DNA of 50,777 nt from Candidatus Nomurabacteria bacterium (lineage in GTDB: Bacteria; Patescibacteriota; Minisyncoccia; Phycocordibacterales; UBA9973). Shown here in pieces: positions 22,950 through 26,667 of this stretch; the stretch's first letter is position 1, and every line of letters starts with the position of its first letter. Location: the NCBI GenBank assembly GCA_943357245.1, contig CALRGH010000002.1, forward strand, positions 1 to 50,777. The letters run 5' to 3'. The position numbers were made by a program, and so were the translations under genes. Under the pieces are notes generated by a model that had not been told where the DNA came from, ran no database searches, and saw only the letters and a program-made list of their open reading frames with translations.

Positions 22950-24008
22950 TTATAGTAATCCTGCTTTTTTCTTGATTTTATACGTGCTTCCATGACCAAG
23001 TAGCCCTTTGTATGAAATACGAGTCGGCTCACTCAAAGATTCCTCTAATCTTGCAACCATACGCCACTTGGTCGATGTCCTTAGTGTGCGATGTGTTGGA
23101 AAATGCACCCAGCCGAGAAAATCTACACCAGACGCATGAGTTTTGATAAATACTTTATTCGGATGCATTGTCAATTTTAATTTTTCTGCAAGAAAAACCT
23201 CTAATTTCGGCAACAATAATTCCAAATACTTTTTATCATCACTCAAAAAGACAAAATCATCTGCATAACGAATACAATATTTCGCTTTGAGATCCCGCTT
23301 CATAAACTGATCAAATTCATGCATATAAATATTTACTAATAATTGCGATGTAAGATTCCCTAACGGCAACCCAACAGGAAAACTATCAATTATTTGATCT
23401 AAAAGCCAAAGAGTGTCTTTATCATAAATATGTTTTGCAAGAATTGTTTTTAAAATACCATGGTCAATGTTCGCAAAAAATTTCCTAATGTCACACTTGA
23501 GCACCCAGCACGTCCTCGTATTATTTTTTGACACCTTGCGTGCAAAATAGCGAAACCTGTCTATTGCCCGATGTGTACCTTTACCTATACGACATGAATA
23601 CGAGTCATAAATAAACTTGCTATCAAAATATGCATATAGATTTCGATAGAGCGCATGATGCAACAACCTATCTCCCACACTAGCTTTGTGAATATCGCGC
23701 GGTTTTGGATCATTGAGCTTAAATGCCACATACCCGCCATGCGTATACGTTTTTTCTTTCAGATTTTTATGAAGCGCAATGATGCTATCCGAAAAATGTA
23801 ATGCAAACAATTCAACATCTTTCCTTTTTTGTTTACCACGCAAAAATTCCTGCCACGAGATAAGTAAGTTTTCGACGGATATGATATTCTTGTACTCATG
23901 GCGCAAGACTCCTCTCTCTCTCTCTCTCTCTCTCTCTCTCTCGGTAGCGCAACCATAATTACGCGCATCAAAGAGGGATATTTGCTGTGGATGAATATTG
24001 TTTCTCAT
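22950..24008 (-). CDS. DGR reverse transcriptase
   Basis: 352 aa; YADDFVF catalytic box; GLPLGNLTSQ (LGxxxSQ, the DGR-RT signature). Start is either ATG 24008 or the in-frame TTG at 23906 just 3' of the (GA)n tract. Confidence 0.9.
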   Translation of the reverse strand: MRNNIHPQQISLFDARNYGCATERERERERERGVLRHEYKNIISVENLLISWQEFLRGKQKRKDVELFALHFSDSIIALHKNLKEKTYTHGGYVAFKLNDPKPRDIHKASVGDRLLHHALYRNLYAYFDSKFIYDSYSCRIGKGTHRAIDRFRYFARKVSKNNTRTCWVLKCDIRKFFANIDHGILKTILAKHIYDKDTLWLLDQIIDSFPVGLPLGNLTSQLLVNIYMHEFDQFMKRDLKAKYCIRYADDFVFLSDDKKYLELLLPKLEVFLAEKLKLTMHPNKVFIKTHASGVDFLGWVHFPTHRTLRTSTKWRMVARLEESLSEPTRISYKGLLGHGSTYKIKKKAGLL

Positions 24009-24308
24009 ATGCCTAAAGGTAATCGCTACACCATCGGGGTGCGCATTGAAAATAAATTACTCGACCTTGCAGAGCTTGCCTATGTCACCTATTTTACTGA
24101 AAAAGACAAGAAACTCCAGAAAATTTGCGACTGCATACTGCTTTTGGACACGCTCAAATTCCTCATACATATAACCTGGGAAGCAAAACTGATTTCTCAT
24201 AAACAGTACGAAATCATTGCTGAAAAATTAGAAGAAATAGGAAAAATGTTCGGCGGATGGAAACGGAATCTTGAGCAAAATCCGGAAAAGAAAAACCGCA
24301 CCTTATAG
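23898..24308 (+). CDS. avd: DGR accessory variability determinant (Avd, four-helix-bundle family)
   Basis: 136 aa; ...YLLWMNIVSHMPKGNRYTIGVRIE...EIGKMFGGWKRN typical of Avd / 23S rRNA-IVS four-helix-bundle proteins. Opposite strand to RT and TR; overlaps the long RT ORF by 111 bp. Confidence 0.8.
   Translation: MAQDSSLSLSLSLSLGSATIITRIKEGYLLWMNIVSHMPKGNRYTIGVRIENKLLDLAELAYVTYFTEKDKKLQKICDCILLLDTLKFLIHITWEAKLISHKQYEIIAEKLEEIGKMFGGWKRNLEQNPEKKNRTL
23912..23942. repeat. (CT)15C dinucleotide microsatellite
   Basis: 31-nt uninterrupted tract. It encodes (SL)n in avd and (ER)5 in the long RT reading frame. Confidence 0.95.
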
Positions 24309-24366
24309 TGCATAGAAAAACCCCGCTGAAATCTAGGATTTCTAACAGGGAAAAAGAAATGAGTTT

Positions 24367-24497
24367 CGGGTACGGAAAACAAACTTGTTATTCGAATTCC
24401 ACCTGTTCGTAGGCTTCGCCGTATTCGCGTTCAGTTCGAGCTGGTCGCCATTATCGTTACAGTTGAACACGTTCGGATTGCCATCACGGTCAGTTTT
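24367..24497 (-). repeat. DGR template repeat (TR)
   Basis: 131 bp homologous to 24815-24945, rich in AAC/AAT codons in gene sense. Every position that differs from VR is A in TR. Confidence 0.88.
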
Positions 24498-24801
24498 GTA
24501 TGCAATGCCATCAGTCTCACTGCCGATCCAAGCGCCTGTGCCAGGGATCGTGCTGTACATATTGTGCGATCGAAAATCGCAAGCATCGCATACCAAGTAA
24601 TTTCTTTTTTTGGACACCATACAAACCACACTATGCACAACTCTAGTCATGCATATTCTCAATTTGCATATGCCAGTGAGGTTTCAGAAAGCCTTAGCCG
24701 TCCAATATCACCAAACCAAATATGATTATACAAAAAAATCGAACAAAGTATCTAAGCATCAAAAACACAAAGTTTCAAAACAATGCTAAGTTACCAAATC
24801 A

Positions 24802-26667
24802 CTAAGCGCTCTTGCGGGTACGGAAAACAAACCGGTTACGCGAATTCCACCTGCGCGTAGGCTCCGCCGCAGGCGCGAACAGCTCGAGCTGGTCGCCATC
24901 AGCGCTACAGCGGAACACGTCCGGATCGCCATCACGGCCAGCTATCTGCTCCATGGCAATCAACATCCAGTCTCTACTATCAGTCTTTAATCGAAGCGCA
25001 GGACCGACTTCTGCGGGGCATAATTCTAATCCATATTCCATTCCTTTTTTATAGATTTCATTGGTTGTTGCGCCATTTGAGAATCCAAGGGCTTCAACCG
25101 TAAGTCGTACCAGTTCGGCTTGTTCTTTGTTTTTTGAAAACGATGTCTTTTTGAGTAAATCATCTCCCCACTCACTAATATAGATATTTTTTGCGTCGAG
25201 TTGTTTTCTTGTCTCTTTTTCATTCGTACCGCCTATCTCTACGTTATACTTGTGTAATTTCCCTTCTGGAAACGCAGTGTAGATATGCTCGATATCTGAT
25301 TTGAAAATGCCAGGAAAAAGCGGACCGACATATGCCTTGGTGTTCTTGTTTATTTCTTGTTGTGTGGTTGCGATTTGCTCCGATGTGCATGCAAACACCA
25401 TTAGCGCATCTTCATTTTTATTTCGCTTTGTGCGAAGCTCTGCTATGCGCGGATCGCGTTCGTAGCCGAATCCTTCAATCGTATTATCTATCTCGTACAG
25501 GAATACAAGATCGTCTTTGGTAAATGGTTCATTTTGCTCTTGTTTTTTTACAAGCGACGTCATGGTACGTATGTCGAGCGACTTTTTATCAAATTTCTCA
25601 CCGCCAGGGAGTGTGTGGTATTGCGCTTGAGCTATCTCAACGAGCGCAGGTTCAAGCTCTTGCCGGTGATTAACTCCGCGAACTTCTTGAACAGCATCGC
25701 CTACCATACGGATAGCAATGCGAGGTTCTGTGTAATTTCCGGACTTTCCTTTCGTATAGTACACATAAAAATCTCCCTCTTCTAAATGTGCGTGCGCAGA
25801 TCCTTCTGCGGTACACCATCCGGTATTTTTGCCACGAATAGTATCCTCAAGTACGTGATAGTCAGACCCTTGCTCAAACTTTACCCATTCGCCTTTTATG
25901 GATTCACGATTGAGCGATCCTGCGGTTTCTAGTTGTGCAAATGTATACAGTTTTATAAAATCTTTTTTATCGATTATCTTTTGCAACGTGTCTCTTTTTT
26001 GCTGTTTTATAGTTATTTCTTCCTGCGTATCCTGTTCCTCCGGCGCAAATTCTTTGTGGCCGATACCTGTCGAGAGCATTCGGTACACAAATCCAAGCGC
26101 TTCGGAATTGATCTCTGGAAAAGGCGCAACGGTATACTCAGTGCGTTTTGAGTATTCGCCTTTTTCTTTGTCGAGTGTCCCCATCTTTGCGAGATTACGC
26201 ACGACAAAATATCGAAACCACGTCGGATATGAAGCGTCATTTTGTTCTAAATAATCGAGCCACGAATGCAACGTTTTTTCTTGAACGTCGTGCTTCTCTT
26301 CTACGGCATGTTTATATTTTTCAAGAAGGTCGTCGTTTGTATCTATATCCATAATCTGTGCGCCATGACCTCGCTCAATAGCAATTTTCTTTTCTGATTG
26401 ATACAAACCGTGCGCTATTTTGAGTACTGTCTCTTCATTATTTGTATCAATGGTAAGATCTTTGGTAATTTTGTGTTTGAGTAACTCCCATCCTCGCTCG
26501 TCTTCTACGATCGCACCGAGTCGTCCAATATACGCCTCAATACGTTCATCGCGAGCGTGCGGTGCAAATTTCCGTTCAGGATCTTTCTTCGCTTGCTCAA
26601 CTGCTCTACTTACTTCTTTTGAACCCGTTAAATCAGGGTATTTTTTATCTAAAAATCCTTCTGCCAT
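24802..26667 (-). CDS. DGR target protein (variable C-terminus, putative C-type-lectin-like fold; N-terminal region of unknown function)
   Basis: Start trimmed to MAEGFLDKK, because the ORF-track start 26724 lies inside REP copy 2. No signal peptide. C-terminus ...RWNSRNRFVFRTRKSA is encoded by VR. Confidence 0.8.
   Translation of the reverse strand: MAEGFLDKKYPDLTGSKEVSRAVEQAKKDPERKFAPHARDERIEAYIGRLGAIVEDERGWELLKHKITKDLTIDTNNEETVLKIAHGLYQSEKKIAIERGHGAQIMDIDTNDDLLEKYKHAVEEKHDVQEKTLHSWLDYLEQNDASYPTWFRYFVVRNLAKMGTLDKEKGEYSKRTEYTVAPFPEINSEALGFVYRMLSTGIGHKEFAPEEQDTQEEITIKQQKRDTLQKIIDKKDFIKLYTFAQLETAGSLNRESIKGEWVKFEQGSDYHVLEDTIRGKNTGWCTAEGSAHAHLEEGDFYVYYTKGKSGNYTEPRIAIRMVGDAVQEVRGVNHRQELEPALVEIAQAQYHTLPGGEKFDKKSLDIRTMTSLVKKQEQNEPFTKDDLVFLYEIDNTIEGFGYERDPRIAELRTKRNKNEDALMVFACTSEQIATTQQEINKNTKAYVGPLFPGIFKSDIEHIYTAFPEGKLHKYNVEIGGTNEKETRKQLDAKNIYISEWGDDLLKKTSFSKNKEQAELVRLTVEALGFSNGATTNEIYKKGMEYGLELCPAEVGPALRLKTDSRDWMLIAMEQIAGRDGDPDVFRCSADGDQLELFAPAAEPTRRWNSRNRFVFRTRKSA
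24815..24945 (-). repeat. DGR variable repeat (VR)
   Basis: Covers the last 44 codons of the target ORF except the final KSA. 23 substitutions relative to TR, all at TR-A positions (hand alignment). Confidence 0.88.

Follow-up and report, generated by a model that had tools for sequence, protein, structure and literature searches.

A diversity-generating retroelement in a Patescibacteria genome and a candidate phase-variation repeat in its avd gene

Diversity-generating retroelements (DGRs) share a homing cycle in which a reverse transcriptase (RT), acting with the accessory variability determinant (Avd), makes cDNA, bases are misincorporated opposite template adenines, and the cDNA replaces a variable repeat (VR). 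The mechanistic prototype is the DGR of Bordetella phage BPP-1 (mtd-avd-TR-brt). To our knowledge, the DGRs of CPR bacteria are the most numerous cellular DGRs, and we know of none that has been reconstituted; CPR/Patescibacteria DGRs were reportedly first surveyed by Paul and colleagues in 2017. Simple-sequence contingency loci provide a second point of reference. In Neisseria, Haemophilus and Campylobacter, poly-G tracts or short repeats lie in 5' coding regions, and a (TA)n tract between the divergent hifA and hifB genes is another such locus. The DGRs of CPR/Patescibacteria form DGR clade 2 (Roux et al., 2021, PMC8144416), and 90% of CPR DGRs have the order TR-(avd)-RT with avd reversed, termed Architecture B3 (Wu et al., 2018, NAR, PMC5758913).

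Here we describe a DGR in a 50,777-nucleotide stretch of a Candidatus Nomurabacteria genome (the window, in what follows). Its elements are ordered target(VR) - spacer - TR - (avd, opposite strand) - RT, where TR is the template repeat. With the Architecture B3 DGRs of CPR it shares gene order, reversed avd, host group, C-terminal VR and A-specific mutagenesis; its target likewise has no recognisable domain or transmembrane segment, and the DGR core shows no difference. A first-pass annotation of this DNA had correctly assigned the element to a known family, a type that is routine in Patescibacteria (CPR), but regarded its architecture as unusual. That view does not hold, since the arrangement is published as Architecture B3 (PMC5758913) and avd is reversed relative to RT in 146 of 147 relatives. 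GTDB genomes contain 397 species-level relatives, all Patescibacteria-type MAGs with RT identities of 60-68%; A-biased TR/VR pairs are present in 92 of 161 fetched loci, with 1,739 of 1,794 mismatches at A.

Homologous RT and Avd proteins and an AAY-rich TR are common to this element and that of BPP-1. In both, the VR lies at the 3' end of the target, and the 3' ends of TR and VR differ like IMH and IMH*. Unlike in BPP-1, avd here lies on the opposite strand, in a head-to-head overlap with the RT start and in convergent orientation to TR. A terminator-like hairpin follows TR here, whereas BPP-1 has a 140-nt spacer into the RT gene, and an array of CTTWG-like units occupies the place of the GC-rich hairpin/cruciform found after the IMH in the phage. 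The present element is chromosomal and its target is probably intracellular; the BPP-1 target is a phage tail fibre.

Reverse transcriptase, repeat pair and target gene

The RT gene (22950-23906, minus strand) is placed from a TTG at 23906, where homology to bRT and to the relatives begins; in alignments with the RTs of relatives, the match begins within residues 1-5 of the protein started from this TTG. The longest ORF (22950-24008, minus strand) extends to an ATG at 24008, running through the repeat discussed below. The start codon is ambiguous: several relatives with (GA)n repeats have CTG or CTT at the position of the window's TTG. The motifs YADDFVF and GLPLGNLTSQ (YADD, LGNLTSQ), pointed out in the first-pass annotation, are found in this ORF. 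The protein matches Pfam RVT_1 (79 bits) and the phage DGR-RT family phrog_1423 (1e-100), and its best PDB match is BPP-1 bRT (8ub7_A; E 4e-39, 277 residues aligned), compared with 1e-14 for group II RTs. It thus sides with DGR RTs. Matches to non-DGR NCBIfam RT models all fall under the curated cut-offs, with group II, retron and DRT models far below.

Beside the RT, the ORF that had been called Avd-like does match Avd models. This gene, avd (23898-24308, plus strand), is divergent from RT, its first 9 nt overlapping the RT start. Its product exceeds the cut-off of Pfam bAvd (54 bits, cut-off 40) and matches phrog_3206, 'Avd protein of DGR' (7.5e-18); against NCBIfam DivGenRetAVD it scores 69 bits (E 3e-19), under that model's cut-off of 80.

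A repeat search of the window returns an ungapped direct repeat, 24364-24510 against 24812-24958, at an offset of 448. Its longest stretch with every mismatch on a TR adenine, read on the minus (gene) strand, pairs TR (24364-24497) with VR (24812-24945) over 134 nt without gaps. On recomputation, the adenine-only divergence claimed for this pair is upheld: all 24 mismatches are on TR adenines (A>G 13, A>C 8, A>T 3; hypergeometric P = 8.7e-15), and 20 of the 44 TR adenines are unchanged in VR. The earlier figures of 131 nt and 23 mismatches in 17 codons described the same repeat pair and missed an A>C at 24366. Mismatches are distributed 12/10/2 over codon positions 1/2/3, and TR contains 11 AAY codons. 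The TR core in current use is approximately 24388-24479. The VR, the only one in the window, is the 3' end of the target ORF (24802-26667/26724), as first described; it covers codons ~594-637 of 640, with sites that vary between assemblies at 24836-24927.

The identity of 18 nt at the 3' ends, also noted at first pass, is seen in both copies (GTTTGTTTTCCGTACCCG) and is followed by CAAG in VR and AAAC in TR. A candidate IMH (GTTTGTTTTCCGTACCCGCAA) lies at 24812-24832 on the minus strand, at the 3' end of VR. The difference between the two ends is conserved across relatives, in which VR ends in ...CGCAAG and TR in ...CGAAA(C/G)T.

The target gene (24802-26667, minus strand) probably starts at an ATG at 26667; the start annotated in databases is a GTG at 26724, which gives 640 aa. 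The last ~45 codons of the 620-640 aa product are rewritten at adenine-templated sites. By homology, the target belongs to a large Patescibacteria-wide family, with 2,626 homologues returned and a Pfam domain in none of them. The target has no match in Pfam, NCBIfam, PADLOC or PHROGs and no PDB relative, and no signal peptide, transmembrane segment or recognisable domain was found in the protein. AlphaFold predicts the whole protein with a pLDDT of 87.7 and its C-terminal domain of ~165 aa, in which the VR sits, with 91.4. The best fold matches of this domain are C-type-lectin-like (NKG2D, MCL, snake-venom C-type lectins and CD72), all non-significant (E 0.2-1, TM 0.3-0.47).

Activity and flanking elements

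RT, avd, TR and target are each whole in the window, in agreement with the initial impression that the DGR is intact. A Logan contig from the same organism (ERR5863119_59253) differs from the window by 22 substitutions in 8,809 bp and is otherwise identical. All 22 are in VR, and all 22 are at TR-adenine positions; the coincidence of variable VR sites with TR adenines that the first-pass annotation proposed to look for is therefore complete between independent assemblies. Because every VR difference between these otherwise identical assemblies falls on a TR-adenine site, homing must have been very recent, and the comparison indicates an active DGR. Variation in VR, like that in the avd tract below, was compared between assemblies; the two alternative assemblies may derive not from a single population but from related samples.

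Several other explanations for this locus can be weighed against these data. Short-read assemblers mis-size repeats, and the Logan contig breaks inside the avd repeat, so the differences in VR and in repeat length could be artefacts of assembly. Such errors would not put 22 of 22 substitutions on TR-adenine positions, a 31-nt dinucleotide tract is well within read length, and independent near-identical pairs from other projects vary at the same two spots; we consider an artefact highly improbable. Still less probable is that the element is a relic, its TR/VR divergence a product of past activity in a DGR that no longer works. Many database DGRs are indeed degenerate, and avd is frameshifted in an ENA assembly of this locus, but the confinement of substitutions to TR-adenine sites of VR in assemblies identical over 8.8 kb argues against decay, as do the intact RT, avd, TR and target of the window. 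The least probable alternative of all is that the RT belongs to another retroelement (a group II intron, retron or DRT-type defence RT) and that the repeat pair arose from an unrelated duplication of part of a gene. Generic RT models do match the protein (group II at 121 bits, DRT and retron at 50-90 bits), but all far under curated cut-offs. The best solved relative is bRT, the motif is LGxxxSQ rather than QGxxxSP, Avd adjoins, mismatches are A-only, and no intron or retron RNA of Rfam occurs in 22800-27600. We continue to read the locus as an intact, recently active DGR.

Two terminator-like hairpins follow TR (24297-24350, minus strand), between the convergent TR and avd. The first (24321-24350; CCCUGUU...AGCGGGG) is followed by UUUUU; the second (24297-24312), also followed by a U-run, is detected by a terminator scan. 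The region folds at -25.9 kcal/mol (z = -3.8). A stem of at least 6 bp ending at a U-run is present after TR in 53 of 55 relatives, compared with 9% of shuffles, and the stems covary. Upstream of TR, a candidate sigma-70-like promoter for a TR transcript (TAGATA, 18 nt, TATAAT; 24725-24754, minus strand) is a consensus match only, and sigma-70-like sites in the region do not exceed the number expected by chance.

Directly 3' of VR, beginning at the stop codon of the target, are eight CTTWG-like units (24744-24806, minus strand) at 8-nt spacing with one gap of 10. Across 81 non-redundant relatives, CTTWG autocorrelation peaks at lags of 8, 16 and 24, and the motif occurs 2.7 times per 90 nt after VRs, compared with 0.29 in shuffles and 0.16 after TRs. 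The imperfect hairpin that the first-pass annotation placed after VR (24785-24807) is not supported: its folding energy is -1.9 kcal/mol (z = -0.46), which 62 of 200 shuffles equal. The segment consists of two units of the 8-nt-periodic array. No GC-rich hairpin was found after the IMH at this position. A GC-rich inverted repeat downstream of the IMH, a feature of the BPP-1 and Legionella DGRs, occurs in only 34% of DGRs (Wu et al., 2018, PMC5758913), and an element can lack it and still count as a DGR.

With Architecture B3 already published and the proposed hairpin non-significant, the DGR itself is ordinary. The avd repeat, the CTTWG array and the TR hairpin are clade-wide features that are apparently undescribed; the literature that we searched, as far as accessible, contains no description of any of the three.

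A simple-sequence repeat in the 5' end of avd

A perfect (CT)15.5 / (GA)15.5 repeat at 23912-23942 (TRF, 100% match), the only G/C-containing simple-sequence repeat in the 50.8 kb window, is a candidate phase-variation switch. It forms avd codons 5-15 (SLSLSL...) and, in the RT direction, precedes the TTG of RT by 5 nt. We place it inside avd because repeat-less relatives share the ATG start of avd and no internal Met is conserved in Avd. Of 145 relatives' loci, 139 carry a hypermutable repeat at the 5' end of the avd coding sequence; its type follows Avd subclade, (CT)n in that of the window and poly-C in the other. This single avd site accounts for 142 of the 146 such repeats in 1.21 Mb of locus DNA. 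Repeat-bearing loci have avd in frame in 46 of 139 cases (33%), which is also the expectation for a tract without frame constraint. Among out-of-frame loci, 57 have no canonical start anywhere that could yield a complete Avd, and the avd ORF is intact in 5 of 6 repeat-less loci.

Both states, in frame and out of frame, occur at the window's own locus. The ENA assembly ERZ27280328 is identical to the window over 8,894 bp except in the repeat, which is 27 nt rather than 31 nt. The 31-nt tract keeps avd in frame; the 27-nt tract stops it after 18 codons. Six other near-identical pairs differ in tract length, among them L098/L006 (over 8,954 bp), L084/L086, L140/L141 and L117/L027, and tract length is the sole difference, or the sole difference besides VR, in such pairs. 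As at described contingency loci, the tract is in the 5' coding region, just past the start codon and at a divergent-gene junction, and its length varies between otherwise identical genomes, shifting the frame on or off. Unlike at those loci, the gated gene encodes a mutagenic retroelement cofactor rather than a surface or restriction-modification function, the host is a Patescibacterium, and the on and off states here were seen in different assemblies. The avd repeat may gate hypermutation by phase variation.

Alternatively, the repeat may not act as an on/off switch. RNA-polymerase slippage or ribosomal frameshifting on the tract could supply some in-frame Avd whatever the genomic frame, or the tract could serve the divergent RT gene as a purine-rich ribosome-binding, 5'-UTR or spacing element. 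Consistent with this, the share of loci with avd in frame matches the random 33% exactly; tracts of both repeat classes are purine-rich on the RT strand and sit 5-40 nt ahead of the RT start; and poly-C loci have a covarying hairpin directly after the tract in the avd sense, which recalls frameshift stimulators. However, 5-6 nt suffice for a ribosome-binding site, whereas the tracts comprise 8-14 G or 10-37 nt of (GA)n, and two repeat types are kept at one site with lengths that change between otherwise identical loci. The intact avd ORFs that repeat-less loci retain from the conserved ATG, and the out-of-frame loci without a start for complete Avd, also argue against this alternative. We judge the two versions of this alternative, taken jointly, unlikely, and favor a tract that switches avd.

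Proposed mechanism and implications

Taken together, the data are best read as an intact, recently active Patescibacteria (CPR) DGR that proceeds through the steps of homing, with a tract-switched avd layered on; we put the probability of this reading at roughly 0.93. A short minus-strand RNA, initiated in the VR-TR spacer, would carry TR and end at the hairpins that follow it. RT and Avd would copy this RNA to cDNA, misincorporating opposite template adenines, and the cDNA would replace VR at the 3' end of the target gene, with the difference between ...CCGCAAG (VR) and ...CCGAAAC (TR) presumably marking a one-way direction. Homing would in this way recode up to ~20 codons of the weakly C-type-lectin-like C-terminal domain. 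As the tract lengthens or shortens, avd moves between in-frame and out-of-frame states, so that Avd supply, and with it mutagenic homing, is probably turned on and off stochastically within a population.

More tentatively, and at somewhat short of an even chance, Patescibacteria DGR hypermutation as a whole may be phase-variable, with the CTTWG array acting in target recognition and the TR hairpin delimiting the template RNA. Only a subpopulation would then be competent for mutagenic homing at any time. The array after every VR would stand in for the BPP-1 hairpin, and the hairpin behind each TR would mark out a short template RNA that is transcribed on its own.

This DGR is one more active example of a very large known class. 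Its target belongs to a widespread Patescibacteria protein family of at least 2,600 members, with no annotated domain and a fold that is predicted with confidence; diversifying selection evidently acts on the C-terminal face of the protein. For the design of a minimal CPR DGR, the TR hairpin and the array that flanks VR are defined cis-elements. The possible importance of the locus lies in control, that is, in how cells limit a DGR, which rewrites an expressed gene. The avd repeat, present in more than 130 species-level loci and seen here in both states, is a candidate for a concrete regulatory mechanism, and tract length modulo 3 provides a simple marker that may be related to VR diversity in existing metagenomes.

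Repeat pair, proteins and architecture

A repeat search of the window returns an ungapped direct repeat, 24364-24510 and 24812-24958, with an offset of 448 nt. We read the pair on the minus strand, the sense of ORF 24802-26724, and set its limits as the longest stretch in which every mismatch falls on an adenine of the template repeat (TR). This yields a 134-nt TR at 24364-24497 (minus strand) that differs from the variable repeat (VR, 24812-24945) at 24 positions: 13 A>G, 8 A>C and 3 A>T. Twenty of the 44 TR adenines are unchanged in VR, and none of the 90 other positions differ (hypergeometric P = 8.7e-15 for adenine-only mismatches). 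The adenine-only divergence claimed in the first-pass annotation was thus reproduced on recomputation, at 24 of 24 mismatches. Its tally of 131 nt, 23 mismatches and 17 codons describes the same pair, short of an A>C at 24366. Codon positions 1, 2 and 3 hold 12, 10 and 2 of the mismatches, and TR contains 11 AAY codons. VR is single in the window: a degenerate search with N at each TR adenine matches only TR and VR. A 106-aa ORF (24342-24662, minus strand) crosses TR in the VR reading frame. Because the part of this ORF upstream of the repeat still resembles the C-terminal domain of the target (WIGSETDGIAYKTDRDGNPNVF versus WMLIAMEQIAGRDGDPDVF), TR looks like the leftover of a duplicated target 3' end.

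The reverse transcriptase (RT) ORF (22950-24008, minus strand) matches Pfam RVT_1 and carries LGNLTSQ and YADD. Its closest solved structure is the reverse transcriptase of BPP-1, the Bordetella phage prototype of diversity-generating retroelements (DGRs) (8ub7, E 4e-39, 277 residues aligned); group II intron RTs (1e-14) and retron RTs clearly trail it in the PDB search. The phage RT family phrog_1423 scores 339 bits, and group II, retron, DRT and Abi models score far under their curated cut-offs. These matches bear out the earlier assignment to DGR-type RTs. The accessory gene avd (23898-24308, plus strand) matches Pfam bAvd above cut-off, NCBIfam DivGenRetAVD (E 3e-19) and phrog_3206, 'Avd protein of DGR'. 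For the target, the alignment favours the previously annotated start at ATG 26667, as does the low pLDDT that residues 1-19 receive. At least 2,626 target homologues exist, essentially all from Patescibacteria metagenomes, and none carries a Pfam domain or an informative name. Searches of the target and its sub-domains against Pfam, NCBIfam, PADLOC, PHROGs and PDB profiles gave no match, including to the PcfJ-like domain reported for some CPR targets (Wu et al., PMC5758913). AlphaFold gives confident models, with a pLDDT of 87.7 over the whole protein and 91.4 over its last 165 residues. Fold searches with the full model and with the C-terminal domain model gave no significant match; the non-significant matches of the C-terminal domain are consistently C-type-lectin-like (NKG2D, MCL, snake-venom C-type lectins and CD72; E 0.2-1, TM 0.3-0.47).

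Read along the minus strand, the element comprises, in order, target with VR, a 314-nt spacer, TR, avd on the opposite strand, and RT. This is exactly the core of Architecture B3, 'TR-(avd)-RT', which was defined by Wu et al. (2018) and makes up 90% of their CPR set (PMC5758913). GTDB species representatives contain 397 RT relatives, the best 80 of which are 60-68% identical and come from Patescibacteria-type MAGs; a metagenome scan added 80 more. The avd gene lies opposite the RT strand in 146 of 147 loci with an Avd match. A-biased TR/VR pairs are present in 92 relative loci, with 1,739 of 1,794 mismatches at A. While the DGR interpretation itself is supported, the architecture cannot be called unusual, as had been suggested. 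Because it matches the published B3 norm, the element is another case of a well-catalogued kind, ordinary for Patescibacteria, whose DGRs fall in clade 2 with targets that lack recognisable domains (Roux et al., 2021; PMC8144416). Among the fetched relative loci (L numbers), the target is inverted or downstream of RT in L006, L019, L021, L028, L037, L050, L072 and L078. Some relatives have duplicated DGR cores, or one TR serving two targets; L039 has two VRs, and L040 has two TR copies (2064-2198 and 5433-5567) plus a second G14 tract at 2601.

The DGR is chromosomal. The regions on its two sides (27435-33870 and 21008-22868, both minus strand) hold the glycolytic genes pgk and tpiA and, opposite them, a type IV pilus/T2SS-like cluster that encodes homologues of T2SSF and T2SSE as well as pilin-like proteins bearing an N-methyl motif. 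A palindrome, GTGTGAGGCnnnGCCTCACAC, occurs three times (22926-22946, 26706-26726 and 27411-27431; 0 expected by chance). Two copies flank a gene for an IS200-like Y1/REP-associated tyrosine transposase (RAYT; ORF 26731-27468, minus strand), and with the third the copies also bracket the DGR cassette exactly, just past the RT stop and just ahead of the target start. We reject a link between RAYT and the DGR because a RAYT gene lies beside the DGR in none of the 80 GTDB relatives (best 80 of 397).

Variation of VR between assemblies

Variant assemblies of the locus were found by exact-protein look-ups; exact matching of the sequences on either side of the repeat, with a gap of variable length between them, gave no match in metagenome and genome contig collections that do not include the window's own contig. 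The second member of the target's 90% protein cluster comes from the Logan assembly of run ERR5863119. The two target proteins differ at 14 residues, all within positions 600-632, and are otherwise identical. At the nucleotide level, the ERR5863119 contig differs from window 23916-32724 (8,809 bp) at 22 positions, all in VR between 24836 and 24927 and all templated by TR adenines; the rest of the 8,809 bp shows no difference. VR variation is therefore confined to TR-adenine sites, as predicted, here in a comparison of assemblies instead of reads. This pattern rules out a relic and shows that the element is active. The 5'-edge TR/VR mismatches and the A>C at 24366 are common to both VR versions; they are thus fixed and lie outside the core that is homed at present.

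Elements that follow VR and TR

Eighteen nucleotides, GTTTGTTTTCCGTACCCG, are identical in TR and VR, followed by CAAG in VR versus AAAC in TR. Across relatives VRs end in ...CGCAAG and TRs in ...CGAAA(C/G)T. Because this difference is conserved, the mismatch at 24366 is probably a donor/recipient difference of the IMH/IMH* type, the VR-end and TR-end elements of BPP-1, and not a mutagenised site. An array of eight CTTWG-like units with 8-nt spacing and one 10-nt gap runs from the target stop codon onward (24806-24744, minus strand). The imperfect hairpin previously proposed after VR (24785-24807) consists of two units of this array, and its fold (-1.9 kcal/mol, z = -0.46) is no more stable than that of shuffled sequence. 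Among 81 non-redundant relatives, the 90-nt stretch past VR holds 2.7 CTTWG motifs versus 0.29 in shuffles and 0.16 after TRs. Exactly 8 nt is the commonest spacing (63 cases), and autocorrelation peaks at lags of 8, 16 and 24 (0.40, 0.36 and 0.34 versus a baseline of ~0.25). The array accompanies VR also in loci where the target is inverted or lies beyond RT. By its position after VR, it is a candidate target-side recognition element. It also supplies TAG and TGA stops in all three frames.

TR is followed by a U-rich leader and a first terminator-like hairpin (24321-24350, minus strand) ending in UUUUU; a second hairpin (24297-24312, minus strand) overlaps the stop codon of avd and has its own U-run. 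The folding energy of the segment is -25.9 kcal/mol (z = -3.8). When the regions downstream of TR are aligned with MAFFT, variable loops misalign the 5' arm and RNAalifold finds no structure; conservation was scored instead by a U-run-anchored scan with shuffle controls. A stem of at least 6 bp ending exactly at the U-run follows TR in 53 of 55 non-redundant relatives versus 9% of shuffles, and every stem position covaries (at pair 2, for example, 25 loci have C-G and 28 have U-A). Since TR and avd are convergent with the hairpin and U-run element between them, the template RNA would most simply be a short transcript that ends at these hairpins and is not co-transcribed with RT. CCGUACC at the TR 3' end pairs with GGUGCGG of the second hairpin in the window's minimum-free-energy fold. 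A promoter-like site at 24754-24725 (minus strand) is a consensus match only, and an Rfam scan of 22800-27600 returned no family.

A simple repeat at the head of avd

A perfect (CT)15.5 tract (23912-23942), the sole G/C-containing simple repeat in the 50.8-kb window, lies where the avd and RT ORFs overlap head to head. Of 145 analysable loci, 139 have a repeat at this site, 7 codons ahead of Avd helix 1; 59 carry a (CT)n tract of 10-37 nt, 79 a poly-C tract of 6-14 nt and one a (CA)n tract. The repeat type tracks Avd subclade: compared with Avd of the window, median identity is 67% in (CT)n loci and 37% in poly-C loci. The DNA of the loci, 1.21 Mb in all, contains 146 repeats of this kind, and 142 of them are at the avd/RT junction. 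Residues directly past the tract are conserved at the protein level, and five of the six repeat-less loci have an intact avd that begins at a conserved ATG, with a 9-15 nt overlap with the RT start (e.g. MTNNTSILERIKEAYLIW). An avd start downstream of the repeat was considered and rejected, as there is neither a conserved start nor, among the relatives, a conserved internal Met. The tract lies inside the avd coding sequence.

Tract length varies between near-identical loci. ENA assembly ERZ27280328 (contig k141_1643352) differs from the window over 8,894 bp only in a tract of 27 nt versus 31 nt; with 27 nt, avd stops after 18 codons, and the gene caller annotated a truncated avd and a truncated RT. 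Both frame states are thus present at this locus. A 6-nt tract change is all that separates loci L098 and L006 over 8,954 bp, and the pairs L084/L086, L140/L141 and L117/L027 differ only in the tract, plus VR where present. Across loci the frame is unconstrained: 46 (33%) have an upstream start in frame with avd, while 92 are out of frame, and 57 of the latter are without any canonical start able to give full Avd.

On the RT side, the window (23904-24008) has a TTG 5 nt past the repeat, and the longest ORF goes through the repeat as (ER)n from ATG 24008. Many (GA)n relatives carry CTG or CTT at the codon homologous to this TTG, and a canonical start is absent between repeat and RT body; in poly-G relatives an ATG follows the tract at a distance of 10-40 nt. 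In poly-C relatives (e.g. L038, L039, L047, L027 and L009), a hairpin in the avd sense directly follows the tract within the avd coding sequence, with covarying stems (AACTTTTGCCAG/CTGGCAAAAGTT, GAGCACC/GGTGCTC and AGCGCC/GGCGCT).

The features of the avd tract are those by which simple-sequence contingency loci are usually recognised. In BPP-1, cDNA synthesis needs Avd together with RT. Given these features and this need, changes in tract length would likely switch mutagenic homing on and off stochastically. As the main alternative, the avd frame could be irrelevant, either because transcriptional or ribosomal slippage gives Avd at any length or because the purine tract serves the adjacent RT start; we regard this as possible but rather unlikely. 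The poly-C-class hairpin could stimulate slippage or frameshifting. As to stochastic switching of homing, we found no report linking DGRs or Avd to simple repeats, homopolymers, frameshifts or phase variation of the element itself, although the repeat or the array may have been described in literature not covered here. Three clade-wide features, the repeat-gated avd, the periodic array flanking VR and the terminator-like hairpin after TRs, appear undescribed, and all three are directly testable in existing read data.
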